A stretch of 64,000 nucleotides of DNA, from the IMG/VR virus record IMGVR_UViG_3300028581_000013; one strand, 5' to 3'. Source of the stretch: a virus. The notes beneath the pieces are model-generated. The model made no database searches. It was not told the DNA's origin and was given only the letters and a program-made list of their open reading frames with translations. The translations under genes were made by a program, and so were the position numbers. Positions 15,166 through 36,494 of the stretch are shown piece by piece. Positions within the stretch are counted from its first letter, which is position 1; each line of letters begins with the position of its first letter.

Positions 15166-15175
15166 AGGAAATAAA

Positions 15176-18490: not shown

Positions 18491-20215
18491 ATGGCGTTTA
18501 CACAAATAACAACATCAAATTTAGATAATACAATTACTACAAAGTTAGCGGCAGCCGAAGCAGCCAATGCAGCCGTTGCAAACATTGTTTCTTTGGCCAT
18601 TAGTAGTGTGCAAATTGCCGATTCATCTTATAATGTTATAGATGATACAGCAGCTAATACAGGTGGTGGTTATTTGGTAATTAACGGAACGGGTTTTACG
18701 AATCAGTCTGTTGTTATTGTTGGTACGACTAATGCTACTAGTACCACATTTGCAAATACAAAACAGTTACGAGCTCAAGTTCCTGGCTTGGCTGCAGCAT
18801 CATATCCTTTATATGTGGTTGATAGTGTCACTGGTGCAACAGCAATTAAAGTAAATGGTATAACATACAGTTCATTTCCAGCATGGTCAACTGGATCATC
18901 GTTAAGTAATCAATCATCAAATGTAGCCTTCTCAGTTAGTTTAAGTGCAAACTCCGATTCATCAATAACTTATTCCAATACTACAGCATTACCAGCTGGT
19001 ACAACATTAGCTGCTAACGGATATTTTTCTGGTACAGTTTCTATTGGTGCTCAGACCACATATTCATTTGATGTGAAAGCCACCGATGCTGAAAATCAGG
19101 ATGTTTCTAGAACATTTAGCTTAACTGTCACAGTAATACCACAAACAAAATTATGGTTATGGGGTTCTGGTAGTTATGGAAAATTAGGTCAAAATAGTGA
19201 AACAAGTTATTCCAGTCCTGTTCAAGTTGGTTCAGGTACTACATGGAATAATATAGGAGCGGCCAATCATTATTTTGACAGCACACATACTTTAGCAACA
19301 AAAACGGATGGCACACTTTGGTCATGGGGTCGTAATAGTTATGGCCAATTAGGACAAAATAATACAGTTAATAGATCCAGTCCAATTCAAGTAGGAACAG
19401 GAACAAATTGGAACAGAGTAGCAGTAGGACCGCTTCATTCTTTAGCTACAAAAACTGATGGCACCTTGTGGTCTTGGGGAGTTACCAATGACGGCCGGTT
19501 AGGTGATGGCATTGGTAGTGGTAGTTATAAATCCAGTCCTGTTCAAGTTGGTTCAGGTACTACATGGAATCTAATATTAGCTTCAGAAAAAAATGGTTTG
19601 GCCACAAAAACTGATGGCACACTTTGGTCATGGGGCCATAATGGTTCTGGACAAATAGGAAACTTTAATACAACCACACAAACAACTCCACAGTTAATAG
19701 ATGGATCAGTATGGAGTTCGATAGCTCTTGGTGGTGCTCATTGTTTAGCTGTTAGATCAACAGATAATACTCTTTACGCATGGGGAAATAATGATACGGG
19801 CCAGCTAGGACGTAATAACGTGTCCAACGTTTCTAATCTAAGTCAAGTTGCAGGAACAACTTGGAGTAAAGTGGCTGCAGCTCAGAACCATAGTTTTGCA
19901 ATTAAAACTGATGGCACTTTATGGGCATGGGGAATGAATGCTTATGGTCAATTAGGAATTAACAATACAATTTATAGATCCAGTCCGGTTCAAGTAGGAA
20001 CAAATACAAATTGGAGTGAAATAAGCACCGGCCAAACACATGCTATAGCAATTAAAACTGATGGCACTCTTTGGTCATGGGGAGATGGTAGTAATGGAAA
20101 ACGAGGATTAAATTCAGGTATATCATCAAGTAGTCCAGTTCAAATAGGAACAAATACAAATTGGAGTAAAATTGTAGGTGGACATTCTCACACAATAGCT
20201 ATTACCTCAAATTAA
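18491..20215 (+). CDS. RCC1-repeat propeller with IPT and Ig-like N-terminal domains
   Basis: KTDGTLWSWG repeats; N-terminal DSSYN..DDTAANT.GGY. Confidence 0.85.
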   Translation: MAFTQITTSNLDNTITTKLAAAEAANAAVANIVSLAISSVQIADSSYNVIDDTAANTGGGYLVINGTGFTNQSVVIVGTTNATSTTFANTKQLRAQVPGLAAASYPLYVVDSVTGATAIKVNGITYSSFPAWSTGSSLSNQSSNVAFSVSLSANSDSSITYSNTTALPAGTTLAANGYFSGTVSIGAQTTYSFDVKATDAENQDVSRTFSLTVTVIPQTKLWLWGSGSYGKLGQNSETSYSSPVQVGSGTTWNNIGAANHYFDSTHTLATKTDGTLWSWGRNSYGQLGQNNTVNRSSPIQVGTGTNWNRVAVGPLHSLATKTDGTLWSWGVTNDGRLGDGIGSGSYKSSPVQVGSGTTWNLILASEKNGLATKTDGTLWSWGHNGSGQIGNFNTTTQTTPQLIDGSVWSSIALGGAHCLAVRSTDNTLYAWGNNDTGQLGRNNVSNVSNLSQVAGTTWSKVAAAQNHSFAIKTDGTLWAWGMNAYGQLGINNTIYRSSPVQVGTNTNWSEISTGQTHAIAIKTDGTLWSWGDGSNGKRGLNSGISSSSPVQIGTNTNWSKIVGGHSHTIAITSN

Positions 20216-20221
20216 TTTCAA

Positions 20222-21772
20222 ATGACTCAATATGTCCGTGCGATTAATATTGCAAACAACTCAATCAAGTCTTTTGTATTTGATTCTGGTGTAGCAAACA
20301 CATTTAATGCCGCAGGTATTGCTAATGATTTGGCAATTGCTGCCAATGTGGCCGCACAAGCAGTTAATACATTTGTTACATTACAAACTCAAGAGCTTGC
20401 CGCTTTGCCTCCAACAATTAATGTAGTATCAGTTACAGATTCATCTTATAATGTTCTAAATATTGCCGAAGCCAATACCACCGGTGCATACTTACAAATT
20501 ACAGGTTCCAATTTTCAATCCGGCGCAATTGTTGTGGTTGGATCCAGTAACACCGCATTAACAACCACATTGGTGAATTCATCCACACTTAGAGCACAGA
20601 TTCCAGCCATCTCATCAGGAACTTATCCTGTATATGTGGTGAATAGTAGTGGCGGTACTGCAATTCGACCAAGAGGTTTAATAACAAGTGATTTTCCTGG
20701 TAGTCAATTGTCTAATCTATGGGGATGGGGAGAAAATTTTTTTGGACAATTAGGCACAAATGATGCAATTGCTAGGTCCAGTCCTGTTCAAATTGGTGAA
20801 GCTTATTTGTGGTCAAACGCTACTAGTGGAGCTGCACATACATTACTTTTAAAAGGAAAATCACCAACAAAAACTTTGTGGGCGATGGGTCGAAATTTTC
20901 GTGGTAACTTAGGATTAAATGATATAATTAATAGGTCCAGTCCAACTCAAATTGGTACAGGAAATTGGTCTTCCATAAGCATTGGTTATTATTTTTCTGC
21001 AGGCATTAAAACTGATGGTACATTGTGGACATGGGGTTATGGTAATTATGGCGCTTTAGGATTAAATAGTATAACCGATAGGTCCAGTCCAACTCAAGTT
21101 GGCACAATGACAAATTGGGCTCAAATTAAAACTGCAGCATACAATCTTTATGCTATTAAAACCGATGGCACGGCATGGGCTTGGGGTCCAGGATATGCAA
21201 TTGGCAACAATTCGACAATTGATAGGTCCTCTCCGGTCCAAATTGGTGCGTTAACAAATTGGTTAAAATTCTCCGAAAGTCCTTGTGATACGGCCTATCC
21301 TGCAGCTATTAAAACAGATGGTACACTATGGGTATGGGGATCAAATTCTTTAGGCGAACTTGGATTAAATAACAAAATTAATAGGTCCAGTCCGGTACAA
21401 ATAGGTACAGGTACTTGGAATACAATTTCAACATCAAGAAATTCTGTAGGTATTAAAACTGATGGCACACTATGGACTTGGGGATGGAATAATACCGAAT
21501 ATGGATCATTAGGTTTAAATGATTCAATTCAGAGATCCAGTCCAGTTCAAGTTGGAGTAGAAACAACTTGGTTAAATGCCGTGTGTGATTATCATGGAGT
21601 AACGGCATTAAAATCTAACGGCACACTATGGTCTTGGGGAAATAACGGTAATGGTCAATTAGGACAAAACGATATAAATAACAGATCCAGTCCTGTTCAA
21701 ATTGGAACAGCAACAGATTGGAGTGAAGTATATGCTGGACACTACTCATCAATCGCAAAAAGAAATGCATAA
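20222..21772 (+). CDS. RCC1-repeat propeller with IPT domain
   Basis: RSSP.QIG and IKTDGTLW.WG repeats; lacks the second Ig-like domain of its paralogs. Confidence 0.85.
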   Translation: MTQYVRAINIANNSIKSFVFDSGVANTFNAAGIANDLAIAANVAAQAVNTFVTLQTQELAALPPTINVVSVTDSSYNVLNIAEANTTGAYLQITGSNFQSGAIVVVGSSNTALTTTLVNSSTLRAQIPAISSGTYPVYVVNSSGGTAIRPRGLITSDFPGSQLSNLWGWGENFFGQLGTNDAIARSSPVQIGEAYLWSNATSGAAHTLLLKGKSPTKTLWAMGRNFRGNLGLNDIINRSSPTQIGTGNWSSISIGYYFSAGIKTDGTLWTWGYGNYGALGLNSITDRSSPTQVGTMTNWAQIKTAAYNLYAIKTDGTAWAWGPGYAIGNNSTIDRSSPVQIGALTNWLKFSESPCDTAYPAAIKTDGTLWVWGSNSLGELGLNNKINRSSPVQIGTGTWNTISTSRNSVGIKTDGTLWTWGWNNTEYGSLGLNDSIQRSSPVQVGVETTWLNAVCDYHGVTALKSNGTLWSWGNNGNGQLGQNDINNRSSPVQIGTATDWSEVYAGHYSSIAKRNA

Positions 21773-21777
21773 ATTAC

Positions 21778-23586
21778 ATGGCAAAAATAACAGCAAACAA
21801 TATCCTCGCATCATCAATTACTTCAGATAAACTTGATTCATCTGTTGCAAGTGGTTTAGCTACTGCAACTAATGCAAACACTCTTGCAACTATTGCTACT
21901 GCTGTGGCAGCTGCTGCTTTTGCAACTGCAAATACCAATGCAGCCATACTGGCAAACTCAGCATCTCCACTAATTACTACAATTCAAATTGCAGATTCAT
22001 CTTATAATATTTTAGATGATACGGCAGCCAATACTACTGGTGGATATGTTGTTATTACTGGATCAGGATTTACCAATAGTTCAACTGTGGTATTTGGATC
22101 AACTGCGGCTCCTGCGGTATCTTTTGTAAATTCAACAACACTCAGAGCACAAGTTCCAGCACTCACAGCGGCTTCATATCCTGTATATGTCGTTAACAGT
22201 AATGGAGGTACAGGTATTCGAATTAATGGATTGACAACAAGTTCATTCCCAGCATGGAGCACCGGTGCAACATTAAGTAACCAAAATGCCAATACATCTT
22301 TTTCTGTTAATCTGAGCGCAAACTCCGATTCATCAATAACTTATGCAAACACCACATCGCTACCTGCTGGTACTACATTGGCCGCTAACGGATTATTTTC
22401 TGGTATTGTAACAATTGGTACACAAACAACTTACACATTCGATGTGAAAGCAACTGACGTTGAAAATCAAGATGCAAGTCGTACATTTAGTTTGACGGTA
22501 ACGATAGGTCCAGCGCCAGGATTATATGTGTGGGGTTTTCATTCTGGGAATGGAGAAGATGGATTAAATATTGGTTCTTCTTCTAAATCCAGTCCAACAC
22601 AAGTAGGAACAGATACAAATTGGAATCAAATAAGTACGGCAAGGTATTCTGTGTTGGCCACCAAAACTGATGGTACCCTATGGTCATGGGGAAATAATAG
22701 TAATGGTCAATTAGGACATAATGATCGAGTCAATAGATCCAGTCCTGTACAAATTGGAACAAATACCAATTGGTCATTGATAAGTATCAGCCCCTATTTC
22801 TTTGCAGCTATCAAAACCGATGGTACTTTATGGACATGGGGACAAAATGATTCTGGTCAACATGGCCGCAATGATAGAGTTAACCGATCTAGTCCAGTTC
22901 AAGTATCAGGAACTACTTGGAGTAAAATAGGTGTTGGTCGAGTGGGAGTTGTATCGGCCACCAAAACTGATGGTACTTTATGGATGTGGGGAATTAACGA
23001 AGAAGGCCAATTAGGAAGAAATGATAGAGTTACCCGATCCAGTCCAATACAAGTAGGATCAGATACAACTTGGAGTCAAGCAAAACTCGGAGATAATTAT
23101 ACTATAGCCACCAAAACTAATGGCACACTATGGAGTTGGGGATATAATAACAATGGCCAATTAGGAAGAAATGATACAGTTCGTAGGTCGAGTCCAGTAC
23201 AAATTGGAGCAAATACCAATTGGAGTTTAAATAATTTTGTTATCGGTGCACCCGGTCCTATACAAGCAGCTACTAAAACTGATGGTACTTTATGGACATG
23301 GGGAAAAAATGATTTTGGCCAATTAGGACACAATAATCGAGGTGTTTATAGATCCAGTCCAACACAAGTAGGAACAGAAACAAATTGGAGTTTAATTAGT
23401 GGAGGTGCGTATAGTTTTACGGCCACCAAAACAGATGGCACATTGTGGTCTTGGGGACAAAATAATTATGGCCAATTAGGAAGAAATGATAAAGTTACCC
23501 GATCCAGTCCAATACAAGTAGGATCAGCAACAAATTGGACTTTAGTTAGTATGGGGCCTTACGCCGGGTTTGCCAAATTATCATAG
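21778..23586 (+). CDS. RCC1-repeat propeller with IPT and Ig-like domains
   Basis: ATKTDGTLW.WG.N..GQLG.ND repeats. Confidence 0.85.
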   Translation: MAKITANNILASSITSDKLDSSVASGLATATNANTLATIATAVAAAAFATANTNAAILANSASPLITTIQIADSSYNILDDTAANTTGGYVVITGSGFTNSSTVVFGSTAAPAVSFVNSTTLRAQVPALTAASYPVYVVNSNGGTGIRINGLTTSSFPAWSTGATLSNQNANTSFSVNLSANSDSSITYANTTSLPAGTTLAANGLFSGIVTIGTQTTYTFDVKATDVENQDASRTFSLTVTIGPAPGLYVWGFHSGNGEDGLNIGSSSKSSPTQVGTDTNWNQISTARYSVLATKTDGTLWSWGNNSNGQLGHNDRVNRSSPVQIGTNTNWSLISISPYFFAAIKTDGTLWTWGQNDSGQHGRNDRVNRSSPVQVSGTTWSKIGVGRVGVVSATKTDGTLWMWGINEEGQLGRNDRVTRSSPIQVGSDTTWSQAKLGDNYTIATKTNGTLWSWGYNNNGQLGRNDTVRRSSPVQIGANTNWSLNNFVIGAPGPIQAATKTDGTLWTWGKNDFGQLGHNNRGVYRSSPTQVGTETNWSLISGGAYSFTATKTDGTLWSWGQNNYGQLGRNDKVTRSSPIQVGSATNWTLVSMGPYAGFAKLS

Positions 23587-23619: not shown

Positions 23620-23648
23620 TTGCCATCAATCCAAGTATCATATATAAT
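23620..23648 (+). promoter_or_regulatory. Sigma70-like promoter for the glycosylation/sulfation cluster
   Basis: TTGCCA-17 bp-TATAAT upstream of GTG 23681. Confidence 0.65.
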
Positions 23649-23680
23649 AGTGTGAATTAATTATTTGAAAGGTTTTACCA

Positions 23681-25441
23681 GTGAAAAACATATATTTTCT
23701 TTCAGGACTTCCACGTTCTGGTTCAACAGTATTGGCTGCTATTCTTAGCCAAAATCCAAGCATTCATGCCACATCCACTTCTAATCTTTTAGATACCCTA
23801 GTAGGTACTCTAAGAGCATGGGCTGATAGTTTGACCACTAGAGCTCAAACGGATCAGAAAAAGGAAGAAGAAAAGATTCAGCATGTTTTAAATAACATCT
23901 GTAAAACTCAATATCATGACATTGATAAACCCATCATTCTTGATAAAGCTAGAGGTTGGGCTGATGATACGAACATGCGTACCATGTCTAAAGTTCTTGG
24001 ACATAAACCTAAAATTATTGCCACAGTTCGTAATGTAGAAGATTGTGCCGCTTCTTTTGTTCGTGTGGCTAAACCAAAAAATTTGGATCATTTTTTACTC
24101 AAAGATGACCTGATTAAACACCTCAAAGAATCATATCAAACATTTGAAAAAGGATATTCATTTGCACCTGAATGTTTTTTAATTATTGACTATGATGATC
24201 TGATGAATGATCCACAAAAAGAATTAAAACGAGTTCATGAGTTTTTAGAATTACCAGATTTTGAATATGATTTAAATGCCATTGATGGTACCAATCTACA
24301 AGAAAAAGATGAAGAAATTTGGGAAGTAAAAGGCCTTCATGATGTTAAACCAAAATTAGGTTATCAACACAAAGAAGATTCTAAAGATGTATTGAAGCAT
24401 CGTTATTATGAATTCGTACAACCAAGATTTTGGTTAGGAGAAAAAGTTGCCAATAAACCTATTCACGACCTTGATTTACAGTTGGCTGCTGGTCTAATGG
24501 GTAACTTTGAAGAAGGTTGGAAGATAGCACAGAAATTAGAGAAAGAAGAACCATGGAATAATCGTGCCGCTTTTAATCGTGGTTGGTATCTCATGCAACA
24601 TGGTAAACTTTTAGAAGGTGAAAAACTATTGTTCCGTGGTCGTGACGAAGGAGTGTTTGGTAATGAACCACCAAAATCACCAATGCCAATGTGGGACGGC
24701 AAATCAAAAGGTACCGTATTATTAAATCTAGAAGGTGGATTAGGTGACCAGATACACGGAGTTCGTTACGCAAGGGATATTGCAAAGATTGCTGGAGAAG
24801 TGATTGTGGCGTGTTCCGGTTCGTTGGCGACACTATTCCGTGATATAGAAGGAGTCGTGGCGGTCTGCCAGAGTGATGCTGTATATGGTATTGTACATGA
24901 TTATTGGGCACCATCCATGTCCACGATACCCATTCTTGGTTACGAATACAAGGACATATCAGGAAAACCATACATAAATAAACCATTAGTAGAACCACAT
25001 AAAGGTTTGAGAATCGGTCTACGGTGGCAAGGTAATCCACAGTTCGAACATGAACAACATCGGATATTCCCACCAACAAAACTATTTGATGCCTTAGAAG
25101 ATGTTGATGCAGAATTTATATCACTGCAACGAGATGAGGGTTCTCAATACAAACCATATTGGGTAAAAGAAGTACCACTAGGTCATTGGGAAGAAACACG
25201 AATAGCGGCTGCATCATGTGATTTAATTATCACATCATGTACCTCTGTTGCACATCTCTGTGGTGCCATGGGAATACCAACATGGATTGTAGTACCTAAA
25301 TTGCCTTACTATTTGTGGGCTCCACCAGGAAACACAACAGTCTGGTATGATTCGGTGAAGCTGTATCGCCAAGAAGTATTTGGAGAATGGTCTGCTCCAT
25401 TTGATCAGATCAAAGTCGATTTACAAAATTTTAAAAAGTAA
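23681..25441 (+). CDS. Sulfotransferase-TPR-glycosyltransferase (GT9-like) fusion
   Basis: GLPRSGST PAPS-binding loop, YDDLM.DP, TPR-like helices, W.G...EGGLGD.I, ISLQ, DLIITSCTSVAHLCGAMG.PTW, WYDSV.LYRQ. Confidence 0.85.
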   Translation: MKNIYFLSGLPRSGSTVLAAILSQNPSIHATSTSNLLDTLVGTLRAWADSLTTRAQTDQKKEEEKIQHVLNNICKTQYHDIDKPIILDKARGWADDTNMRTMSKVLGHKPKIIATVRNVEDCAASFVRVAKPKNLDHFLLKDDLIKHLKESYQTFEKGYSFAPECFLIIDYDDLMNDPQKELKRVHEFLELPDFEYDLNAIDGTNLQEKDEEIWEVKGLHDVKPKLGYQHKEDSKDVLKHRYYEFVQPRFWLGEKVANKPIHDLDLQLAAGLMGNFEEGWKIAQKLEKEEPWNNRAAFNRGWYLMQHGKLLEGEKLLFRGRDEGVFGNEPPKSPMPMWDGKSKGTVLLNLEGGLGDQIHGVRYARDIAKIAGEVIVACSGSLATLFRDIEGVVAVCQSDAVYGIVHDYWAPSMSTIPILGYEYKDISGKPYINKPLVEPHKGLRIGLRWQGNPQFEHEQHRIFPPTKLFDALEDVDAEFISLQRDEGSQYKPYWVKEVPLGHWEETRIAAASCDLIITSCTSVAHLCGAMGIPTWIVVPKLPYYLWAPPGNTTVWYDSVKLYRQEVFGEWSAPFDQIKVDLQNFKK

Positions 25442-25453
25442 TAGGAGATAGTA

Positions 25454-25876
25454 ATGCCAACAAGATCAGGTTATAATGTTCGAGTTCAGAATGGTAAGGT
25501 AACAGATTGCTGGGATACACCAGCACCAGAAGGTCAATCCGGTTGGAGTGCAGCCGTAGAGATTACTCCAGACCTCACACCTAACCGTGAAATTCTTACA
25601 ACACATACATTTGATATTACCAAAAATCCAATTGAGATTGTTTGGGGTAAGCGTGAGTTGTCAGTTGATGAGCGTAAAGGTTCTTTAATTGGTCAAGCCA
25701 ATTTTGAAGTAATTCGTTTAGAAAACCAATTGCAAATGAAGCGTAATATACCAGAGTTTGCTGACCAAATCTCCACACTTGAAGCTGAAATTGAAGCCGC
25801 CAAGTCAACTAGAGATGCTCGTGTTATTCAAGTTAATGCAGCCGCTACACATGAGGATGTTGACGCACTAATGTAA
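25454..25876 (+). CDS. Hypothetical protein (possible fibre assembly factor)
   Basis: AGGAG RBS; helical C-terminus; no firm family. Confidence 0.55.
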   Translation: MPTRSGYNVRVQNGKVTDCWDTPAPEGQSGWSAAVEITPDLTPNREILTTHTFDITKNPIEIVWGKRELSVDERKGSLIGQANFEVIRLENQLQMKRNIPEFADQISTLEAEIEAAKSTRDARVIQVNAAATHEDVDALM

Positions 25877-25893
25877 TTTTTTGAAAGTTTGTT

Positions 25894-26610
25894 ATGAATT
25901 CTTTGTTTTTTTCGTATAATATGGATGTAGATAAGGCTTACATCATTCGGGTTAAAGATAATAAAAAATCTGAAGATGTGGCCTTACGATGTGCCGAATC
26001 TTGTAATCAAGTAAAAATGCCTTACGAGTATTGGGATGCGTATGATGGTTATTCTCGGCGCATCAAAGAGCCGGAACATTCTAAAAATAGTTCAGTAATG
26101 AAAATGATGAAAATCACAGATCATTACTTGACGAGAGGTGAAGTGGCTTGTGCATTGTCCCATATTTCTTTGTGGGCTAAGTGTGTTGAGATAGACCAAC
26201 CAATTGTTATTTTAGAACATGATTCGATTATGGTTCAACCATATCTCAAGCATGCCGTATTTAATTCAATCGCATATCTAGGTAATAATGAACAGGTCAA
26301 CGGTGGTTGGCCAGTTCTACCAACACCTACTCATGCATCAGAAGGACCAAACTATCATTTTATTTGTAGGGCTCATGCATATGCCATTGATCCTGCTGTG
26401 GCAAAAAATATGATTTCTCATGTAATTAAATTTGGTATCTGTGCGCCATTAGATATCATTCTTCGAGCCGATATATTTCCAATTTATCAGATGGGTATCT
26501 ACGCCTATGATGTTAAAGAAAGAGAAGAAGATGGTAATCTTAAAACAACCATACTTGGCAGACCTCTAGAAGGCCGTTCAACAATTCGTAATGATAGATT
26601 AGAAACATGA
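25894..26610 (+). CDS. Glycosyltransferase family 25
   Basis: AYII, DAYDG, GEVACALSH.SLW..C and ILEHD motifs. Confidence 0.85.
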   Translation: MNSLFFSYNMDVDKAYIIRVKDNKKSEDVALRCAESCNQVKMPYEYWDAYDGYSRRIKEPEHSKNSSVMKMMKITDHYLTRGEVACALSHISLWAKCVEIDQPIVILEHDSIMVQPYLKHAVFNSIAYLGNNEQVNGGWPVLPTPTHASEGPNYHFICRAHAYAIDPAVAKNMISHVIKFGICAPLDIILRADIFPIYQMGIYAYDVKEREEDGNLKTTILGRPLEGRSTIRNDRLET

Positions 26611-27188
26611 AATTAACCGTAAGATTCCACGACCACACAATTAGAAGTTTTCAACACATTGTAAGTTCAATTGGCTTTCCAAAAGTATCAATTGAAATAG
26701 GATGTTTTGAAGGTGACAGCACATTTAACATAACTGGTATTTGTCATCAACAAAATTCAAATTATAAACATTACGCAATTGATCCATACGACAATAGTGA
26801 TGACTTGCCTGAAAAAAATATACCACAGACCAAAGAAATGTTTTTAAGTAACTTAGAAGAATTTGAACCTAAAGGTGTGGTGGAGTTTATTAATAAAAAA
26901 TCTTTTGATGGATTGATTGACTTATATAATCGTGGTGTCAAAGCCGATTTTATCTATGTTGATGGAGATCACCGAGCACCAGGTGTATTACAAGATTGTG
27001 TTTTAGGATTTGAATTGTTGAATAAAGGTGGTGTAATGTTATTTGATGACAGTATGGTGTGGAGAAAAGATAACAACCCATGCAACTCGCCTAAAATGGC
27101 AGTAGATAATTTCATGCAATGTTATTGGGATAAATTAGAAATTTTTGAGTTACCTAGTGGTTATCAATCTGCTGTTCGTAAATTATGA
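26607..27188 (+). CDS. Class I SAM methyltransferase (Methyltransf_24-like)
   Basis: IEIGCFEG.S, IDP, DFIYVDGDH and GG.MLFDD motifs. Confidence 0.85.
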   Translation: MKLTVRFHDHTIRSFQHIVSSIGFPKVSIEIGCFEGDSTFNITGICHQQNSNYKHYAIDPYDNSDDLPEKNIPQTKEMFLSNLEEFEPKGVVEFINKKSFDGLIDLYNRGVKADFIYVDGDHRAPGVLQDCVLGFELLNKGGVMLFDDSMVWRKDNNPCNSPKMAVDNFMQCYWDKLEIFELPSGYQSAVRKL

Positions 27189-28018
27189 TTCATGTTGTAT
27201 TAAGGACTTGTAATAGAACTTCTCTACAGTCCGATAGAATAGTAAATAAATCTGAATGTATTCTTCGGTGTTTAAATTCAATTATCACCAATCTCAAAAA
27301 TATACCAGAAAAATCATTACACATTATTGATGATAACTCTGTTGCTGAATTTCAGGACATACTTAAAGAACTGATTCAACCACACGATTTCGTCACAATC
27401 AATTTTTTACCACCAAGAAATCAAGAAGGATTATCACCTAAGAAAAAATCTAGGCACTCAGTTCAAGTAGCCTACGAATACATCTACAATTTACCTGATG
27501 ATGATTTGGTGTACATTGTAGAAGATGACTATCTACATTTTTCAGGTGCCATTGGTGAAATGATTGAATCGTGGACATATCTTTCATCGGTTACTGGTTT
27601 AGAAATAGGTATTTTTCCACAAGATTTCAATCAACTATATTATCATCCAAGTCATCCATATAATGAAACATATTATAGGCCATGTTTTGTTGTTCCTACA
27701 CAGCATAGATATTATAGAAGCACATGGTTTACACAAGAATCATTTATGATTCAAGCCAAGATATTTAAAAAGTATAAAGAACACTTTGATAAGTTATTAA
27801 TTATTGGTGAAAAAGAACATCATTGGGAAGGTAACACGATATCCACGGTGTGGAATAAACCAGAATTTAAAATGTTTATGCCAATGGGTTCACTAGTGGT
27901 ACATATGTCAAACAAAATGGACATACCGTTTTATATAACGAAAGATGCCGTAATTAAATTATGGGAAGAAAACAAAACATACTGGTCGTTGGAACAGGAT
28001 TCTCAGGTTCAGTTATAA
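27185..28018 (+). CDS. GT-A fold glycosyltransferase
   Basis: IIDDNS and YIVEDDYLH (DxD-like) motifs. Confidence 0.7.
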   Translation: MIHVVLRTCNRTSLQSDRIVNKSECILRCLNSIITNLKNIPEKSLHIIDDNSVAEFQDILKELIQPHDFVTINFLPPRNQEGLSPKKKSRHSVQVAYEYIYNLPDDDLVYIVEDDYLHFSGAIGEMIESWTYLSSVTGLEIGIFPQDFNQLYYHPSHPYNETYYRPCFVVPTQHRYYRSTWFTQESFMIQAKIFKKYKEHFDKLLIIGEKEHHWEGNTISTVWNKPEFKMFMPMGSLVVHMSNKMDIPFYITKDAVIKLWEENKTYWSLEQDSQVQL

Positions 28019-28962
28019 CCAGAGAACTGGCCAATCGTGGTTACAATATTACCATAATTGACCAAAGAGGCCATATTGGTGGCAACTGTTATGATGAGAT
28101 GATAGATGGTGTTCTAGTACACCGCTACGGACCGCACATCCTACACACAAATAACAATAGAGTAATTGAATGGTTGTCCCAATACACCGAATGGGTACCA
28201 TACCAACATAAAGTCAAAGCATATCACAAAGGCCAATATCTAACTTTACCACCTAATTTGGAAACACAAAAAATATTAGGTGATAAATTGTTTGAAACTC
28301 TGTATGTGCCTTATTCTAAAAAGATGTGGGGCTTGCCGACCGATAAGATTGATAGTAGTATATTAAATCGTATCAAACTAAGAAATGATTTAAACGAATT
28401 ATATTTTCCAAATGATGAATACCAATGCCTACCCAAAGGTGGTTATAATAAACTATTTGGAAATATATTAAATCATTCAAATATAAAAATAAAATTAAAC
28501 ACCAAGTTTTCTAAAGAAATGGAAACTGAATATGATTTTGTTTTTAATTCAATGGCAATAGATGAGTATTATGATTACTGTCATGGTGAATTACCATATC
28601 GGTCAATCAAGTTTCATTTTACCGATAAATCTTACTTTGATATGCCAACATCGGTAGTTAATTTTACGGATGATGGACCATATACACGCATTACAAAATG
28701 GGAATTGTTTCCTGAACATGGATTTGGTGAGAGATATACATTAGAAGAACCTTGTGATTACCGAGATAATAATTATGAACGGTATTATCCAGTAAAAGAT
28801 TCAGAAGGTTTAAATCGAGCAATATATAATAAGTATAAGGACATAAAAAACGACAAGGTCCAGTTTATTGGTAGATGTGGATTGTATGTTTATATCGATA
28901 TGGATATGGCAATCAGTTCATCATTGGCAATCGTTGATAATTTTATTAAGGAACAAATATGA
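27961..28962 (+). CDS. glf: UDP-galactopyranose mutase
   Basis: GTGFSG FAD motif, HIGGNCYD, HRYGPHI.HT, LPYRS, RYYP, GR...Y.Y.DMD. Confidence 0.93.
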   Translation: MGRKQNILVVGTGFSGSVITRELANRGYNITIIDQRGHIGGNCYDEMIDGVLVHRYGPHILHTNNNRVIEWLSQYTEWVPYQHKVKAYHKGQYLTLPPNLETQKILGDKLFETLYVPYSKKMWGLPTDKIDSSILNRIKLRNDLNELYFPNDEYQCLPKGGYNKLFGNILNHSNIKIKLNTKFSKEMETEYDFVFNSMAIDEYYDYCHGELPYRSIKFHFTDKSYFDMPTSVVNFTDDGPYTRITKWELFPEHGFGERYTLEEPCDYRDNNYERYYPVKDSEGLNRAIYNKYKDIKNDKVQFIGRCGLYVYIDMDMAISSSLAIVDNFIKEQI

Positions 28963-29789
28963 AAAAGATTTTAATTATGGGTTTACCTGGTGCCGGTAAA
29001 ACATTTTTGGCTGAAGCATTGAAAAAATACCTAGAAAAACATGGTGAACGAGCCGATTATGGTGAAATGTTACCTATCACAGGATTTAATGCTCAAGTAA
29101 CTTGGTTCAATGCTGATGATGTTCGTAAAAAATTCAATGATTGGGATTTCTCTAAAGAAGGACGTATTCGGCAATCATTAAGAATGGCACAGTTTGCATT
29201 TGAAGCTGGTGGTGATTATGTTATTTGTGATTTCGTGGCACCTATTCCAGAGATGAGAAACAATTTCAAAGCCGATTGGACAATTTGGGTTGACACAATT
29301 GAAGCTGGTCGTTATGAAGATACTAATAAAATGTTTGTACCACCAGATGTATATGACTTCCGTGTTACAGAACAAAATGCGGAGAAATGGGCTGAGTTTA
29401 TTGGTAATCACATTATTGAAAATCGTAGGCGTCCTGTGTTTGACTGGAAGAAAGAAACAGTTCAAATGTTGGGTCGCTGGCAACCATGGCATGAAGGTCA
29501 CCGAGCATTGTTTGACCGAGCCATTGCCAAAACTGGTCAGGTAGTCATTCAAATTCGAGATTGCCAAGGATGGCAAGGTTCTAATCCGTTTGCCATTGAA
29601 CAAGTTAAATCGTATATCCGTAGAGATTTGGATCCAATCTATCAAGGCCAATACGAGATTCAAGTGGTACCTAATATCGTCAATATCACCTATGGTCGTG
29701 ATGTAGGATACAAAATCGAACAAGAAACCTTTGATAAATCAATCACCGACATTTCAGCCACCAAGATTCGTAAGCAAATGGGAGTCTAA
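28959..29789 (+). CDS. cysC: Adenylylsulfate kinase-like domain fused to HxGH nucleotidyltransferase
   Basis: GLPGAGKT P-loop, NADDVR..DFS..GR; C-terminal GRWQPWHEGH and ISAT.IR. Confidence 0.8.
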   Translation: MKKILIMGLPGAGKTFLAEALKKYLEKHGERADYGEMLPITGFNAQVTWFNADDVRKKFNDWDFSKEGRIRQSLRMAQFAFEAGGDYVICDFVAPIPEMRNNFKADWTIWVDTIEAGRYEDTNKMFVPPDVYDFRVTEQNAEKWAEFIGNHIIENRRRPVFDWKKETVQMLGRWQPWHEGHRALFDRAIAKTGQVVIQIRDCQGWQGSNPFAIEQVKSYIRRDLDPIYQGQYEIQVVPNIVNITYGRDVGYKIEQETFDKSITDISATKIRKQMGV

Positions 29790-29791
29790 CC

Positions 29792-29834
29792 AAATGTGGA
29801 TGATTTATAAATATAGTATAAATCACCCATATTT
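29792..29834 (+). promoter_or_regulatory. 18-bp imperfect inverted repeat enclosing late promoter TATAAATA (29806-29813)
   Basis: aaatgtggatgatttata-7 nt-tataaatcacccatattt. Confidence 0.6.
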
Positions 29835-29848
29835 TAGGATAGATTCAA

Positions 29849-31576
29849 ATGACCACAAAGATTCTTGGAAACCAGATCACCAGTTACACAATTGACACAG
29901 TACAATTAAGTAATACAGCCACGGCAGCCTTTGCCAAAACACTAGCACCTAAAGTTCTCTATGCCAACGTGGCCAGTAATACCTTTACAGTATTAAATGA
30001 TACAGCGGTTAACGTAGGTGGTGGTTACATTGTTGTTACTGGTGCCGAATTTCAATCTGGTGCCACCATATTAATCGACACAACTCCTGCTTCAGCCGTT
30101 ACATATGTAAATTCAACAACACTACAAGTTCAAGTTCCTACAAAATCAGCGGCATCTTATAATCTTTATGTGGTTAATCCTGATGGTGGCGTTGGTATTA
30201 AAGTTGCTGGTATCACATACAGCTCTGAACCTTCTTGGATCACTGCAAGTCCATTGGCAAATCAAGAAGCCAATACAGCCTTTGGTGTTAACCTTAGTGC
30301 TACTAGTGCAACATCTTATTCTTTAGCAGCCGGCTCTACATTACCAACCGGTACAACATTAGCTGCCAACGGATATTTCTCTGGTACAGTTTCTATTGGT
30401 GCTCAAACCACATACACATTTAGTGTTGTAGCTACAGATGCTGAGTTACAAGATTCAAGCAAAACATTCCAAGTAACTGTGACACTAACACCGCTGACAA
30501 GATTATATTCTTGGGGTATGAATGGATTTGGTGTTGGAGGTTTAAATACAAGTGGGGGATACACGCTTAGTCCAACACAAGTAGGAACAGGAACAACTTG
30601 GAAGTCAGTAAGTAGCCGTGCAACCAATTCTGCAGCTATCAGAAACGATGGTACTCTATGGACTTGGGGATACAATACTAATGGCCAGTTAGGTCATAAT
30701 GATACAGTTTACGCCAGATCCAGCCCAACACAGGTAGGAACAGCAACAACATGGAACCTTGTTAGTGTTGGTAACTACAGTATTATGGCCACCAAGACTG
30801 ACGGCACCTTGTGGTCCTGGGGCGTTAACACACAAGGACAGTTAGGACTTGGTAATACAGTTGCCAGATCCAGTCCAGTACAAGTAGGAGCAGGAACAGA
30901 TTGGTACCGTATTGACACTTCTTCAGCATCTTCTATTGCTATCAAAACTGATGGCACATTGTGGGCTTGGGGCCAAGGCTACATGGGCAAATTAGGACTT
31001 GGCGATACAGTTGATAGATCCAGCCCCGTACAGGTGGGTGCAAATACCACGTGGAATAGAATAAGTATTAGCACCTCTCAGTGTTTAGCTATTAAGACTG
31101 ACGGTACCTTGTGGGCATGGGGCAGAAATGACAACTACGGTTCTTTAGGACTCAACGAAATTTCAACTTATACAAAACTCAGTCCTACACAAATTGGTAC
31201 ATCAACTAATTGGAGTCTGGTTAGTGGTGGAGAGTATGGTTCTATGGCCACCAAGACTGACGGTACTTTGTGGACCTGGGGTCGCAATAATGTTGGACAG
31301 TTAGGACTCGGTAACATCAGTAATAGGTCCAGCCCAACACAGGTGGGAACAGGAACAAATTGGAATTTAATAAGTGCATCTTCAACCGGTAGTCAGAATA
31401 GATTGGCCACCAAGACAGATGGCACAATGTGGGCCTGGGGTGACAATAGTAACGGGCAGTTAGGACAAAATAATCAAACCAACCGATCCAGTCCTGTGCA
31501 AGTGGGAGCAAGCACCACGTGGAGTTTTATAAGTGCAGGACGAGGTGTTCTTGCCATTACTTCAATTGCTCCATAA
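29849..31576 (+). CDS. RCC1-repeat propeller with IPT and Ig-like domains
   Basis: Same architecture as 18491 and 21778. Confidence 0.85.
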   Translation: MTTKILGNQITSYTIDTVQLSNTATAAFAKTLAPKVLYANVASNTFTVLNDTAVNVGGGYIVVTGAEFQSGATILIDTTPASAVTYVNSTTLQVQVPTKSAASYNLYVVNPDGGVGIKVAGITYSSEPSWITASPLANQEANTAFGVNLSATSATSYSLAAGSTLPTGTTLAANGYFSGTVSIGAQTTYTFSVVATDAELQDSSKTFQVTVTLTPLTRLYSWGMNGFGVGGLNTSGGYTLSPTQVGTGTTWKSVSSRATNSAAIRNDGTLWTWGYNTNGQLGHNDTVYARSSPTQVGTATTWNLVSVGNYSIMATKTDGTLWSWGVNTQGQLGLGNTVARSSPVQVGAGTDWYRIDTSSASSIAIKTDGTLWAWGQGYMGKLGLGDTVDRSSPVQVGANTTWNRISISTSQCLAIKTDGTLWAWGRNDNYGSLGLNEISTYTKLSPTQIGTSTNWSLVSGGEYGSMATKTDGTLWTWGRNNVGQLGLGNISNRSSPTQVGTGTNWNLISASSTGSQNRLATKTDGTMWAWGDNSNGQLGQNNQTNRSSPVQVGASTTWSFISAGRGVLAITSIAP

Positions 31577-33745: not shown

Positions 33746-34519
33746 ATGCCGGCCGTAACAAACAGACAAACATTAAAAGAATATTGTTTGAGGAGATTAG
33801 GTTTTCCTGTTATTGAAATCAACGTAGATGAAGATCAAGTAGAAGATCGTATTGATGATGCTTTACAATATTGGCAAGATTACCATTTTGATGGCTTACA
33901 AAAAGTATACTACGTCAAATCTGTAACTCAAACAGATATTAATAACAAATACCTGGATTTTTCAAATATAAGAGATGATGCCAACAATGCACTTGAAATT
34001 GTTGGTGTGACTCGTGTATTTCCAATTACTGATTCTCAGTCAACAATTAATATGTTTGATTTAAGATATCAATTGCGTTTAAATGAATTGTATGATTTTA
34101 CTTCTGCATCATATGTTAATTACACTTTAACACAACAACATTTACGTTCTTTAGAAATTATGTTTTCTGGAGAAGTACCAATTCGTTTTCAAAGACACAT
34201 GCGAAAACTTTTTATTGACCATGCATGGGGTCGAGCAGCTGCACCAGTAGGATCAATTGTTGTTGCTGAGTGTTGGGCTAATATTAATCCTGATGTTTAC
34301 AATCGTGTGTGGAATGACCGATGGGTTAAAGAATATGCCACAGCACTTATCAAAAGAACATGGGGAAATAATTTAAAGAAGTTTTCAGGTGTTCAATTAC
34401 CAGGTGGTGTAACATTAAATGGTAAAGAAATATTTGATGAAGCTGTTAACGAAATAAAGGACCTTGAAACTGAAATGCAAGACAAGTACTCCTTACCTGT
34501 GGACTGGTACATGAACTAA
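33746..34519 (+). CDS. gp13: Neck protein gp13
   Basis: LKEYCLRRLG.PVI.INV..DQ..DRIDDA; WG.NL.KF.GVQLPGGVTLNG. Confidence 0.92.
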   Translation: MPAVTNRQTLKEYCLRRLGFPVIEINVDEDQVEDRIDDALQYWQDYHFDGLQKVYYVKSVTQTDINNKYLDFSNIRDDANNALEIVGVTRVFPITDSQSTINMFDLRYQLRLNELYDFTSASYVNYTLTQQHLRSLEIMFSGEVPIRFQRHMRKLFIDHAWGRAAAPVGSIVVAECWANINPDVYNRVWNDRWVKEYATALIKRTWGNNLKKFSGVQLPGGVTLNGKEIFDEAVNEIKDLETEMQDKYSLPVDWYMN

Positions 34520-35403
34520 TGCCAACGTCAGCTTATTTTAACAATTACAATTCTAAGCAAGAACAAAATGTAATTGAAGATTTAATTGTAGAGTCTATAA
34601 AAATTATGGGCTTTGATGCCTATTATTTGCCAAATGATAATGATGCTGCACGTGATTTACTTTATGGTGAAGATCCAGTTAAAAAGTTTAGTTCTGCTTT
34701 TCCATTAGAAATGTATCTTTCTTCTGATCCAACTGATTACATTGGACAGAAAGATATCTTTTCTAAATTTGGTTTAGAAATTAAAGACGATGTGAATGTA
34801 TTGGTATCTCGTAGGTCATTTTCACAACGAGTTCCACAGAATACATTTACACGGCCACGAGAAGGTGATTTGGTTTATGTGCCTTTTTTAAATGGTACTG
34901 GTGAATTGTTTGAAATTAAATTCACAGAACAATCAAAAGACTTTTATACACTAGGCAGAAAACAACCTTATTTCTATGAACTGTACTTAGAGAAATTTAA
35001 ATACTCACAAGAAATTATTGATACTGGTGTTGCTGATATTGATTTGGTGGTTACAAATAATGCTTACACACAATCTCTACATACTGGTGTCGGTACAGGA
35101 CGATATACAATAAAAGAAACTGTATACCAATCTATTAATAGTACACGAAATACTGCCACTGCGGTTGCTATAGTACAGAGTTGGATTCCAACTTCTAATA
35201 CATTAACAGTAACTAATATTGCTGGAGAGTTTGTTGTTGGTAGATCAATTATTGGTGCAAGCAGTAATGCTCGTTATACACTTGCAACATTTAATCCTTT
35301 AGAAGATAATACTTATAGTGAAGAATATGATAATAATTTGATTGCAACAAATGCAAATTCAATTATTGATTTTTCAGAAACTAATCCTTTTGGTAACATA
35401 TAA
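34519..35403 (+). CDS. gp14: Neck protein gp14
   Basis: EQ...EDL..E.IK..G, SKFG, RPREGDL.Y.P, DFSE.NPFG. Confidence 0.92.
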   Translation: MPTSAYFNNYNSKQEQNVIEDLIVESIKIMGFDAYYLPNDNDAARDLLYGEDPVKKFSSAFPLEMYLSSDPTDYIGQKDIFSKFGLEIKDDVNVLVSRRSFSQRVPQNTFTRPREGDLVYVPFLNGTGELFEIKFTEQSKDFYTLGRKQPYFYELYLEKFKYSQEIIDTGVADIDLVVTNNAYTQSLHTGVGTGRYTIKETVYQSINSTRNTATAVAIVQSWIPTSNTLTVTNIAGEFVVGRSIIGASSNARYTLATFNPLEDNTYSEEYDNNLIATNANSIIDFSETNPFGNI

Positions 35404-36494
35404 TGTCCGCTATTTCATACAATAGAGTAATTCGTAAACTGGTTGTTGGCTTTGGTAATCTTTTTAAAGATATTACCTTGGTTCGTTACAATCCAGATTT
35501 AACAGAGGCACAAAGATTTCTTGTACCAATAGCTTATGCAACTAAAGAATTTTATGTTCGAAGGTTAGAAGGAGATCCTAACCTTGATAAAAAGGTTCAA
35601 GTAACTTTACCTAGAATGTCTTTTGAAATGTCTGGTTTAAATTATGATGTAGCCAGAAAATTAAATACAAATACAAAAACATTTGCAAAGACACCAGCAG
35701 GAATAGTTTCTCAATATAATCCCGTACCATATGATTTTGATTTTAATCTTTATATCTATGTTCGTAACATAGAAGATGGTACACAAATTATAGAACACAT
35801 ACTTCCATTTTTTGCACCAGATTATACAATCAAATTAAATTTGATACCTGAAATGGGTATAATTAAAGAAGTGCCTGTTGTATTAAATTCAACCACACAT
35901 GAAATACAATATGAAGGCAATAAAGAAAATGAAACTCGCTTAATTATATGGACATTAAATTTTACAGTTAAAGGATTTATCTTTGGTAAAGTATCTGATA
36001 CTGGTGGAGTAATTACACATTCAATTACTTCAATCTTTACTAAATTAACTGAAAATGAGATTATAGAATTTACAATCAATCCTAATTCAGGAATTGGAAC
36101 ATATCAAGTAGGTGAAACTGTTTATCAAGGCTACTCTGCGCCAATGGCTGTAGCTACAGGCAAAGTAGTGTTCTTTAATAACAATACATTACAGTTGCAA
36201 AATATTAATGGTAATTTTACTTCTGATTTGCCAATAAAATCCACTACCTCTGGTGCAAACTATGCGTTCACATCATTTGTTCCTCAATCACAGAAGCGTG
36301 TTCAGATAGATGTGACACCAATGCCAACAGATGCCAATGTCAGCACACCTTATGTTGCAACAGTTCAAATATCCGAAACACCAAATATTATAGAAACAAA
36401 TATATTACCAGATAATTTTGCTGGTGATTTAACTACACAAGTTGGTCGTGATGACCTACATATAGAACAAGAAAAAACAACCGATTTACATTAA
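35403..36494 (+). CDS. gp15: Tail terminator / sheath stabiliser gp15 with C-terminal extension
   Basis: FG.LF..I, VPIAY, LPRMSFE, PVPY, QI.E.ILP.F.P. Confidence 0.9.
   Translation: MSAISYNRVIRKLVVGFGNLFKDITLVRYNPDLTEAQRFLVPIAYATKEFYVRRLEGDPNLDKKVQVTLPRMSFEMSGLNYDVARKLNTNTKTFAKTPAGIVSQYNPVPYDFDFNLYIYVRNIEDGTQIIEHILPFFAPDYTIKLNLIPEMGIIKEVPVVLNSTTHEIQYEGNKENETRLIIWTLNFTVKGFIFGKVSDTGGVITHSITSIFTKLTENEIIEFTINPNSGIGTYQVGETVYQGYSAPMAVATGKVVFFNNNTLQLQNINGNFTSDLPIKSTTSGANYAFTSFVPQSQKRVQIDVTPMPTDANVSTPYVATVQISETPNIIETNILPDNFAGDLTTQVGRDDLHIEQEKTTDLH

Follow-up and report, generated by a model that had tools for sequence, protein, structure and literature searches.

A seven-gene cassette between RCC1 fibre genes

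The stretch of viral DNA that we analysed (hereafter the window) is 64,000 nt long and corresponds to the minus strand of positions 34735–98734 in the 136,428-base IMG/VR virus record IMGVR_UViG_3300028581_000013, a record of 82% completeness by CheckV. It holds a cassette of seven same-strand genes (23681–29789; o1 to o7 in Table 1) for predicted sulfation and glycosylation enzymes, with genes for RCC1-propeller fibre proteins on both sides and a hairpin at its end. Four of the six gene junctions are overlaps (o3/o4, o4/o5, o5/o6 and o6/o7) while gaps of 12 and 17 nt separate the genes at the remaining two; a first-pass annotation made from the sequence had already noted the mostly overlapping start and stop codons, as well as the RCC1 genes that bracket the cassette (18491–23586 and 29849–31576). 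The o5/o6 overlap is 58 nt long (27961–28018), and the upstream start of o6 that creates it seems to be required, since the Rossmann GxGxxG motif of o6 begins at residue 11. No 19-residue stretch in any of the seven proteins rises above 1.51 on the Kyte–Doolittle scale, and all seven look soluble. Family searches with the cassette proteins gave no match to lipid-carrier, flippase, polymerase, ligase or export families, and the cassette contains no gene for peptide synthesis or polyketides.

Fibre genes occupy the first 33 kb of the window, and the products of five combine a seven-bladed RCC1 propeller with an N-terminal stalk in which IPT/TIG or He_PIG immunoglobulin-like domains occur. One of the five lies at a distance from the cassette; the products of the other four, three in tandem upstream and one downstream, are the substrates that we propose for its enzymes. 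The three upstream RCC1 proteins are made up of 21–26% serine plus threonine, 9–10% asparagine and 4.5–5.0% aspartate plus glutamate; serine, threonine and asparagine are abundant in all the structural proteins adjoining the cassette. The G+C content of the cassette (0.338–0.355) dips below that of the rest compared (0.38–0.42). We considered a recent foreign insertion as the cause and rejected it: the flanks encode Gly/Ser/Thr-rich proteins, and the o1–o2–GT25 core of the cassette is old in RCC1 clusters (see below), so the dip is not read as a recent import. The first-pass annotation had the cassette "inserted" among adhesin genes; we take this as a description of place and not of an event.

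Table 1. The cassette, its control sites and other features located in the window
Feature	Position	Strand	Description	Match
Promoter candidate	23620..23648	+	sigma70-like, TTGCCA-17-TATAAT	11/12 match; TTGCCA 23620-23625, TATAAT 23643-23648
o1	23681..25441	+	586 aa; sulfotransferase (1-260) + TPR (262-327) + GT9-like GT-B (344-586)	
o2	25454..25876	+	140 aa; no family; constant partner of o1	
o3	25894..26610	+	238 aa; GT25-family glycosyltransferase	Pfam 3.8e-16
o4	26607..27188	+	193 aa; class I S-adenosylmethionine-dependent methyltransferase	Methyltransf_24 1.2e-15
o5	27185..28018	+	277 aa; probable GT-A glycosyltransferase, weak	GT2 5.1e-5, borderline
o6	27961..28962	+	333 aa; UDP-galactopyranose-mutase-family flavoenzyme, shortened	Pfam GLF 2.6e-44
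o7	28959..29789	+	276 aa; APS-kinase-like (1-157) + minimal HxGH nucleotidyltransferase (164-276)	APS_kinase 1.1e-7
Hairpin + TATTTT	29797..29835	+	after o7 stop; 13-pair A+T-rich stem, listed on - strand	
Three tandem RCC1-propeller fibre-head genes	18491-20215, 20222-21772, 21778-23586	+	proposed substrates	RCC1 1e-49 to 1e-57, IPT/TIG, He_PIG
Fourth flanking RCC1 fibre-head gene	29849-31576	+	proposed substrate	Pfam RCC1 5.5e-56
RCC1 fibre gene	12016-13419		distant from cassette	Pfam/PHROG
gp13-, gp14-, gp15-like proteins	33746-36494			PHROG
Large terminase, sheath, portal; scaffold next	between gp15-like and major head protein genes			PHROG
Major head protein	46515-47843			PHROG
Helicase, gp46/47-like nuclease, clamp loader	after major head protein			PHROG

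ORF o1 joins a sulfotransferase to TPR and GT9-like parts

The N-terminal part of o1 matches Sulfotransfer_3 (PF13469; residues 6–194, 3.4e-19, 70.4 bits against a cut-off of 27), and a search of the 136-kb record found no second match to this family. An AlphaFold2 (AF2) model of o1 built with 25 homologues (predicted local distance difference test, pLDDT, 87.2) resolved three parts, which were compared with known folds (VIA; here and below we give Z, root-mean-square deviation (rmsd) and aligned residues, on AF2 models). The nearest fold to residues 1–260 was that of human TPST1, a tyrosylprotein sulfotransferase (Z 18.3, rmsd 3.6, 236 aligned), followed by CurM (Z 16.1) and the heparan-sulfate sulfotransferases (Z ~14), CurM and the latter together spanning Z 13–16. 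The PRSGST motif of o1 aligns to PRSGTT of TPST1, and R117...S125 to an R...S of TPST1; we take these to be, respectively, the 5'-phosphosulfate loop and the 3'-phosphate Arg...Ser that bind 3'-phosphoadenosine 5'-phosphosulfate (PAPS), the sulfate donor, and the PAPS-binding-loop positions are at least 90% conserved in the 25 homologues. In the same alignment the TPST1 stretch "cgeet" stands opposite "atsts" of o1. The TPST-like fold of the model hints at protein as the sulfate acceptor, a point to which we return below.

Residues 262–327 are modelled as TPR (AspH TPR domain, Z 11.5, rmsd 1.6, 66 aligned), which is seen in the model only, no Pfam TPR family being matched at E ≤ 10. Residues 344–586 form a compact GT-B domain in the model, with WaaC as its nearest neighbour (Z 15.8, rmsd 3.2, 228 aligned) and WaaF (14.9), a Veillonella GT9 protein (14.7) and TibC (14.5) next; two protein glycosyltransferases, SPY and TibC, are among the structural matches. 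By sequence, residues 251–586 match no Pfam family at E ≤ 10, PF01075 (Glyco_transf_9) has no match anywhere in the record at E ≤ 1, and a profile of the 25 o1 homologues found no GT9 chain in the PDB. The C-terminal domain of o1 is GT9-like by its modelled fold, without Pfam or PDB sequence membership; the enzyme assignments of the first-pass annotation, to which families and folds can now be attached, were otherwise largely right, its "GT9" holding as a likeness of fold and not as membership in the Pfam family. Most of the named Atlas clusters nearest to the C-terminal part carry PF01075 (13–55% of their members), alongside TPR families, and the language-model neighbours of o1 are TPR and Glyco_transf_9 clusters from Pseudomonadota and phages.

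Three related viral loci (L049, L050 and L051) carry 321-residue ORFs that consist of a stand-alone TPR and GT9-like part, beside RCC1 genes and without the sulfotransferase, so the two halves of o1 can work apart.

The genes from o2 to o6

ORF o2 has no Pfam, PHROG or NCBIfam family and in the Atlas falls among viral hypothetical clusters only, the nearest named one ("tail assembly chaperone", 0.88) being a lead only; its C-terminal motif, of the TTHEDVDAL type, is conserved. The match of o3 to Glyco_transf_25 (PF01755) scored 60 bits against a cut-off of 24 and covered only positions 19–100 of the 199 in the profile. PDB matches to o3 were weak (a GT25 protein at 0.0022 and mimivirus R655 at 0.0084), and it has EHD opposite the EDD of the aligned GT25 chain. 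Weak matches also linked o4 to the rhamnosyl O-methyltransferase/CmcI family (0.0041; 0.031 in NCBIfam), and sequence searches of the PDB gave a single chance-level row for o4 and no match at E ≤ 1 for o5. The Glycos_transf_2 match of o5 just clears its cut-off (23.7 against 23.3 bits; residues 21–79 only), and its sequence contains IIDDNS and VEDDY, which we take to be GT-A and DxD motifs. The GLF match of o6 is strong in Pfam (151.8 bits against 26.3) and remains under the cut-off of the TIGR00031 equivalog (270.1 against 303.75); its alignment to PDB entry 3hdq (2.8e-65) is in two pieces and skips about 36 residues of the solved enzyme. On this sequence evidence o6 is a member of the Glf family, with a putative mutase substrate.

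A 2-oxoglutarate (2OG)-Fe(II) oxygenase gene lies amid the fibre genes (4229–4825, + strand). Its product matches positions 444–630 of PHROG 61 (689 positions), and positions 15–158 of the same profile match o3, which means that elsewhere oxygenase and glycosyltransferase belong to a single family or fusion. This sharing is reminiscent of hydroxylase–glycosyltransferase pairs that work on structural proteins.

Linkage of the cassette to RCC1 genes in other phages

A scan of viral contigs gave 55 loci with an o1 homologue (44–96% identity), with adjacency counted on 45, 44 or 38 of them. Homologues of o2 were present at 44 of the 55, of GT25 at 38 and of o7 at 23, and o1–o2–GT25 is the constant core of the cassette. 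The complete seven-gene order was found at eight loci (L002–L009; in one o1 is cut at the contig start, and in another o4 was matched over 0.67 of its length), and the Glf and GT-A genes, at high identity, are confined to the same eight. A glycan containing galactofuranose (Galf), which the first-pass annotation had proposed, would thus be an accessory of the closest relatives and not a feature of the system.

RCC1 genes were found in the fetched flank of 53 of the 55 loci. The gene directly upstream of o1 encodes an RCC1 protein in 35 of 45 cases, and the spacer before o1 is at most 20 nt, or an overlap, in 31 of these 45; o2 follows o1 within 43 nt at 41 of 44 loci; and an RCC1 gene of 1.1–2.3 kb stands between o2 and GT25 at 23 of 38. 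At L011 (o1 62% identity), for example, the order is RCC1, RCC1, o1, o2, RCC1, GT25, o7 and a GT32-like gene, with RCC1/enzyme overlaps of 4 and 1 nt. The GT32-like gene after o7 (14899–15606 of that locus; Gly_transf_sug, 1.4e-10) is absent in the window, which indicates that accessory enzymes are swapped in and out of the cassette from lineage to lineage.

A second, independent sample consisted of 80 viral loci chosen through o7. In it RCC1 occurred at 12 of the 14 loci with a GT9-like domain and at one of the 66 without (Fisher p = 1.9e-11, a value that ignores shared descent). Among cultured phages, cyanophage BUCT-ZZ01 has a tail fibre gene followed by an RCC1 gene and this directly by one whose product contains the C-terminal domain of o1, and cyanophage S-SRM01 has a fibre gene, RCC1 genes and genes for a TPR protein, a 2OG oxygenase, RCC1, a sulfotransferase, a glycosyltransferase and an epimerase. 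Among 50,697 phage records, megablast with the cassette gave no match, and a tblastn search with o1 matched 12, none over 80% or more of o1; the fused o1 is on this count absent from the collection.

ORF o7 and a possible supply of PAPS

The first half of o7 exceeds the Pfam threshold for APS_kinase (PF01583; 32.4 bits against 21.1) and is below the cut-off of TIGR00455 (22.7 against 138.7); APS, adenosine 5'-phosphosulfate, is the precursor from which such kinases make PAPS. With a profile of 47 o7 homologues APS kinases came first in the PDB (1.8e-15), and the C-terminal part led to nicotinamide-mononucleotide adenylyltransferase (NMNAT; 4.4e-11, the Methanocaldococcus (M.) jannaschii enzyme). 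In the AF2 model (pLDDT 92.6) the kinase domain is nearest to CysC (Z 17.2, rmsd 1.8, 128 aligned), with others at 16.9 and 16.1 (rmsd 1.8–2.4), and gluconate kinase reaches Z 13.9 only, so that APS kinases are the closer fold. The second domain folds like phosphopantetheine adenylyltransferase (PPAT; Z 10.4) and NadM (10.3), the PPAT/NMNAT range being 10.1–10.4, and it has the motifs GRWQPWHEGH, YGRDVGY and ISATKIR, in which HxGH and ISxTxxR are present. It scores 24–27 bits against the curated NMNAT models of NCBIfam, whose cut-offs are 127–397 (best 3.3e-6), aligns to residues 1–135 of the M. jannaschii enzyme and ends directly after ISATKIR. The o7 family is large: clustering at 90% identity leaves 8000 clusters or more, and clustering at 50% leaves 2079 representatives.

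Neither PF01747 (Sat) nor PF01507 (CysD-type) has a match in the virus record at E ≤ 1, so APS has to come from the host or else from another source. The HxGH domain may act like an ATP sulfurylase without being a member of that family, and that o7 is a self-sufficient PAPS synthase we rate at about even on the comparisons that follow. The first-pass annotation had called the cassette self-contained, a description that is contingent on o7 making APS itself.

A competing explanation, to which we assign a probability somewhat short of one half, gives o7 a role other than PAPS synthesis: the kinase domain would phosphorylate host-made APS or another substrate, and the HxGH domain would be NMNAT-like or would adenylylate a sugar phosphate, giving an ADP-sugar for the GT9-like domain of o1. 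GT9 enzymes use ADP-heptose as their donor, which speaks for the ADP-sugar variant. The HxGH domain is, moreover, nearest to NadM and archaeal NMNAT by sequence and to PPAT/NMNAT by fold, and has no sequence match to ATP sulfurylase (PF01747). Several o7 homologues also occur apart from sulfotransferases: those of phages Sano and DLP_6 (36–40% identity) stand among early-type genes in records with no Sulfotransfer_3, and in the sample of 80 o7 loci some o1-type sulfotransferase was present in the fetched flank at 23 and none at 57. Of the o7 hits beside o1, at 23 of the 55 loci of the first scan, four are kinase-only. Pfam scans of the neighbours at 13 of the 57 sulfotransferase-less loci found a carbamoyltransferase directly upstream of o7 at four and radical-SAM genes at one; the four carbamoyltransferases are of the NodU/CmcH type (L190 8514–9998, L206 7969–9450, L209 7951–9426 and L212 8523–9998).

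Other contexts of the same domain argue against this explanation and for PAPS synthesis by o7. A 311-residue protein couples a full-length canonical CysC (PF01583 5.7e-63) to an HxGH domain with 45% identity to that of o7, the same nucleotidyltransferase–CysC (NT-CysC) fusion is found on a bacterial chromosome with housekeeping genes as neighbours (L059; 2.8e-65 to PF01583), and protein P0206 has the o7-type kinase and the HxGH domain in reverse order. We compared 25 genomes of the order to which the L059 bacterium belongs (0.9–1.6 Mb; incomplete, completeness figures being absent), in which the HxGH domain was found in four and APS kinase in three, always within the NT-CysC fusion, and Sat and CysD in none of the 25. 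In both of the genomes that hold the fusion together with Sulfotransfer_3, the two genes lie 7.5–15.5 kb apart on one contig; as their co-occurrence across the 25 genomes is weak (2/4 against 3/21), only this co-location is used here. In the viral sample a stand-alone sulfotransferase gene stands directly upstream of o7 at 7 of the 80 loci.

The bacterial NT-CysC locus (L059 1–16927, and contig 4 of genome G001) also has, near the fusion, a 659-residue protein of no family, a 1660-residue RTX-repeat protein and a protein with TPR and a 2OG oxygenase, with Sulfotransfer_3 proteins of 612 and 815 residues 15.5 kb away; it may be a protein hydroxylation and sulfation island. Another o7-type protein, P0160 (395 residues), has an N-terminal DUF4118 membrane domain (7.5e-17) and would be a membrane-anchored fusion of kinase and HxGH domain.

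Promoter, hairpin and time of expression

The sigma70-like site that the first-pass annotation placed ahead of the cassette is found in the sequence: both hexamers, at 17-nt spacing, lie between genes ahead of the first gene of the cassette, in the 94-nt gap from the end of the RCC1 gene (23586) to the GTG start of o1 (23681). At a loose threshold (9/12) promoter-like sites are not enriched between 17 and 35 kb (57 against 67.7 ± 8.5 in shuffles). At 11/12 or better the whole window has 10, against 4.42 ± 1.99 in 100 Markov simulations; eight of these sites lie on the coding strand, five of them in or abutting gaps of more than 60 nt. Gaps of that size account for 5% of the window. Given this excess and the intergenic placement, the site stands above chance as a candidate promoter with a predicted transcript start. 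In nine aligned upstream regions of relatives the −10 hexamer is exact in five and matches at five of six positions in two more, and the −35 hexamer is kept in three. Four further 11/12 sites, in or abutting gaps before non-structural genes (48890, 52469, 58587 and 63900, + strand), are probably early or middle promoters of the phage.

The motif TATAAATA, which we take to be the T4 late-promoter consensus, has seven copies in the window, all on the coding strand (8651, 21673, 29806, 33718, 43182, 45257 and 63923), a count at chance level (7.18 expected). Four of the copies stand 20–45 nt upstream of structural gene starts (8680, 29849, 33746 and 45293), and their strand and placement suggest late promoters of the T4 type. 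A window-wide search for the motif found none ahead of o1. The hairpin after o7 contains one copy (29806–29813), 36 nt upstream of the ATG of the next RCC1 gene (29849), and from its sequence may serve both as terminator and as late promoter. No terminator-like site was found between the upstream RCC1 genes and o1, so transcripts of the former could read through into the cassette.

The cassette of this phage resembles a sigma70-type unit of its own set within the late region, and its expression before the late genes, as the first-pass annotation had it, is plausible here from the type of site and from the lack of TATAAATA before o1. The claim does not extend to the relatives, 31 of 45 of which have the short spacer described above: a promoter-sized spacer (more than 60 nt) precedes o1 in four of 45, the nearest ones only, and early expression is for that reason not a property of the system. 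Outside these nearest relatives o1 is packed behind an RCC1 gene and presumably co-produced with the RCC1 protein. Early expression would fit decoration of the fibres and remodelling of the host envelope alike.

The target of the cassette

The reading that we favour, with a confidence of about one half, is that the soluble cytoplasmic enzymes of the cassette attach a short sulfated glycan to the RCC1 heads of the phage's own fibres, either ahead of virion assembly or in the course of it. The first-pass annotation had left a choice between the fibres and the host surface, and we lean, at that same even level, to the fibres over the envelope on account of the soluble enzymes, the TPR of o1, the lack of any lipid-carrier, flippase, polymerase or ligase gene in the cassette, and the interleaving and translational coupling with RCC1 genes. 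The fold neighbours in the o1 model would be in keeping with this, TPST being nearest to the sulfotransferase part and TibC and SPY being among the matches of the C-terminal part.

The proposed mechanism would start with docking of the TPR region of o1 on the fibre protein, much as the TPR of the flagellin glycosyltransferase FlmG docks on flagellin. The GT9-like domain of o1 would attach the first sugar and the GT25 enzyme (o3) would lengthen the chain; in this sub-lineage only, the GT-A enzyme (o5) would also extend it, with UDP-Galf from the Glf-type mutase (o6). ORF o4 would O-methylate the glycan and the sulfotransferase domain of o1 would sulfate it with PAPS. The PAPS would be provided by o7, whose HxGH domain would make APS from ATP and sulfate and whose APS-kinase-like domain would then phosphorylate the APS.

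Several points weigh against fibre decoration. The glycan and sulfate on the fibres, and the enzyme activities, are proposed from genes and models. What we take to be the catalytic Glu of TPST falls on T/S in o1, and the low aspartate plus glutamate of the fibres (4–5%) is a poor fit for tyrosine-sulfation sites; this non-conserved catalytic stretch and the acid-poor fibres speak against protein as the sulfate acceptor. The GT9-fold and GT25 families are typified by lipopolysaccharide (LPS) enzymes, and WaaC and WaaF, which are such enzymes, slightly outscore TibC in the fold comparison, the difference in Z of about 1 being a near-tie. At 10 of the 80 o7 loci a sulfotransferase is present without a GT9-like domain or RCC1. 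The sigma70-like site, with no TATAAATA as found at neighbouring structural genes, would separate the cassette from the fibres in time. Finally, pelagimyophages keep many LPS-type glycosyltransferases in their hypervariable fibre region, which in the parts of the paper used here are read as modifying the host O-chain (PMC7029224), and with this precedent the linkage to RCC1 could stem from a common dumping ground and shared descent instead of function.

A different explanation receives about half the confidence of fibre decoration: the enzymes would act at the cytoplasmic face of the membrane on lipid A-core or another envelope glycan, blocking superinfection or the sticking of progeny to debris. 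The fold neighbours WaaC and WaaF (Z 15.8 and 14.9) and GT25 ("LPS biosynthesis protein") are LPS-core families, the promoter is of the type found before non-structural genes and would put expression ahead of the late genes, the pairs of sulfotransferase and o7 without RCC1 at the 10 loci just mentioned would fit, and the interpretation published for glycosyltransferases in the pelagimyophage host-recognition cluster is of this kind in the sections at hand (PMC7029224). Remodelling of the envelope leaves the TPR of o1 and the interleaving and translational coupling with RCC1 genes unexplained, however, the promoter-sized gap before o1 is limited to four of 45 relatives, and no membrane-associated or export component is encoded in the cassette.

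It is improbable, in our estimate, that the target is something else again, either a small soluble molecule or a virion protein other than the RCC1 heads, such as one of the glycine-rich or tail-fibre proteins nearby. Acceptor residues are on offer in all the neighbouring structural proteins, with their abundant Ser, Thr and Asn, o7 homologues of other phages stand next to carbamoyltransferases or radical-SAM genes, and Iyer et al. 2010, in the portion drawn on here, tie such enzymes also to secondary-metabolite clusters (PMC2938197). Set against this, the co-occurrence is specific to RCC1 (12/14 against 1/66), and peptide-synthesis and polyketide genes are missing from the cassette.

Taken together with the question of o7, fibre decoration leads to a joint proposal, which we regard as possible though distinctly below even: the HxGH domain would be an ATP sulfurylase of a third, minimal type that arose from NMNAT/PPAT-like adenylyltransferases, o7 would be a PAPS synthase of 276 residues, and the glycan that the phage sulfates with its help would sit on the phage's receptor-binding fibres. 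With the same reserve, its carriers would be thousands of aquatic phage lineages and, in the form fused to CysC, streamlined marine bacteria without Sat and CysDN.

Comparison with known systems

The GT-B fold of o1 residues 344–586 is common to TibC/AAH (PDB 4rap and 4rb4), WaaC/WaaF (2gt1 and 1psw) and CAZy family GT9. TibC glycosylates repeat-rich adhesins. The o1 domain differs in its fusion to TPR and a sulfotransferase and in being about 80 residues shorter, and there is no sequence match between the two. Bifunctional PAPS synthases (human PAPSS1, 1x6v; Aquifex Sat-CysC, 2gks) resemble o7 in combining an APS kinase with an adenylyl-transferring domain, their kinases reaching Z 16.0–16.1 to that of o7; they differ in having a far larger ATP sulfurylase in place of the putative NMNAT/PPAT-like domain of ~110 residues, which has no PF01747 match. 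Mycobacteriophages reportedly encode glycosyltransferases that decorate the virion, the targets being capsid and tail-tube proteins of actinophages, as Freeman et al. are said to have described in 2023. That system is like the one proposed here in that soluble phage-encoded glycosyltransferases act on the phage's own structural proteins, and unlike it in that no sulfation, PAPS supply or receptor-binding fibres are known to be involved.

Three further systems were compared from parts of the respective papers. FlmG of Caulobacter crescentus is a flagellin O-glycosyltransferase with TPR and GT-B parts, in which the TPR binds flagellins and glycosylation takes place in the cytoplasm (PMC7591256); it shares with o1 a soluble cytoplasmic TPR-then-GT-B arrangement, and it acts on a surface filament protein that has yet to be exported. 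The likeness is one of architecture, since FlmG, as described there, has no sulfotransferase and its TPR spans residues 1–313 against ~66 residues in o1. For bacteria, Iyer et al. 2010 predicted operons whose sulfotransferases and PAPS synthetases would act on tail-collar or collagen-like proteins encoded alongside (PMC2938197). As in the window, these place a sulfotransferase and PAPS supply beside fibre-type proteins, and the β-hydroxylase found there has a possible counterpart in the 2OG-Fe(II) oxygenase at 4229–4825; in contrast to the phage cassette they are bacterial, are thought to sulfate hydroxylated residues and have canonical PAPS synthetases, and in the portion drawn on they include no TPR–GT9-like fusion and no RCC1. 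Of the 162 LPS-related proteins in pelagimyophages, 63 are inside the host-recognition cluster (Zaragoza-Solas et al. 2020, PMC7029224); these phages are likewise T4-like and aquatic, infect streamlined hosts and have glycosyltransferases in a hypervariable fibre region, whereas the words "sulfotransferase", "RCC1" and "sulfate" do not occur in the main text of that paper.

The phage and other genes of the window

PHROG matches show T4-type core genes in T4 order in the window (Table 1), and the major head protein is 65% identical to its counterparts in Methylophilales phage Melnitz and Pelagibacter phage Mosig. Contigs from four RNA libraries with a freshwater or lake label are 90–99% alike to the 3' end of o1, o2, o3 and o7, and on this account we call the phage aquatic; these contigs are uninformative on transcript start, strand and timing, DNA may be present in the libraries, and the parts of the cassette left uncovered carry no meaning.

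Beyond the head genes, a gene at 52626–53414 (+ strand) encodes a protein of 262 residues with an adenylyltransferase part like domain II of RfaE (TIGR02199 1.6e-24) and a C-terminal part of the mannose-6-phosphate-isomerase type (TIGR01479 4.1e-25); the sigma70-like site at 52469 stands ahead of it. This protein may take part in nucleotide-sugar supply, perhaps of an ADP-sugar for the GT9-like domain of o1.

Implications

Glycosyltransferases in the fibre regions of phages and glycosylation of virions are both of known kinds. In a literature search whose scope excluded most subscription journals, we found no paper on a fusion of sulfotransferase, TPR and GT9-like domain, none on the pairing of o1 with o2, GT25 and RCC1 heads, and none on a fusion of APS kinase with an HxGH domain; the role of phage sulfotransferases in general has been called unclear (PMC10580990). 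Were the fibres the target, abundant aquatic phages would carry a sulfated glycan of their own making on their receptor-binding proteins, which would matter for host recognition, for sticking to particles and for virion stability. Should the joint proposal be true, these phages would have a sulfated virion surface of a kind not described before. And if the second domain of o7 makes APS, it would represent an unrecognised route to activated sulfate in a very common protein family, one that also occurs in bacteria showing no known ATP sulfurylase.

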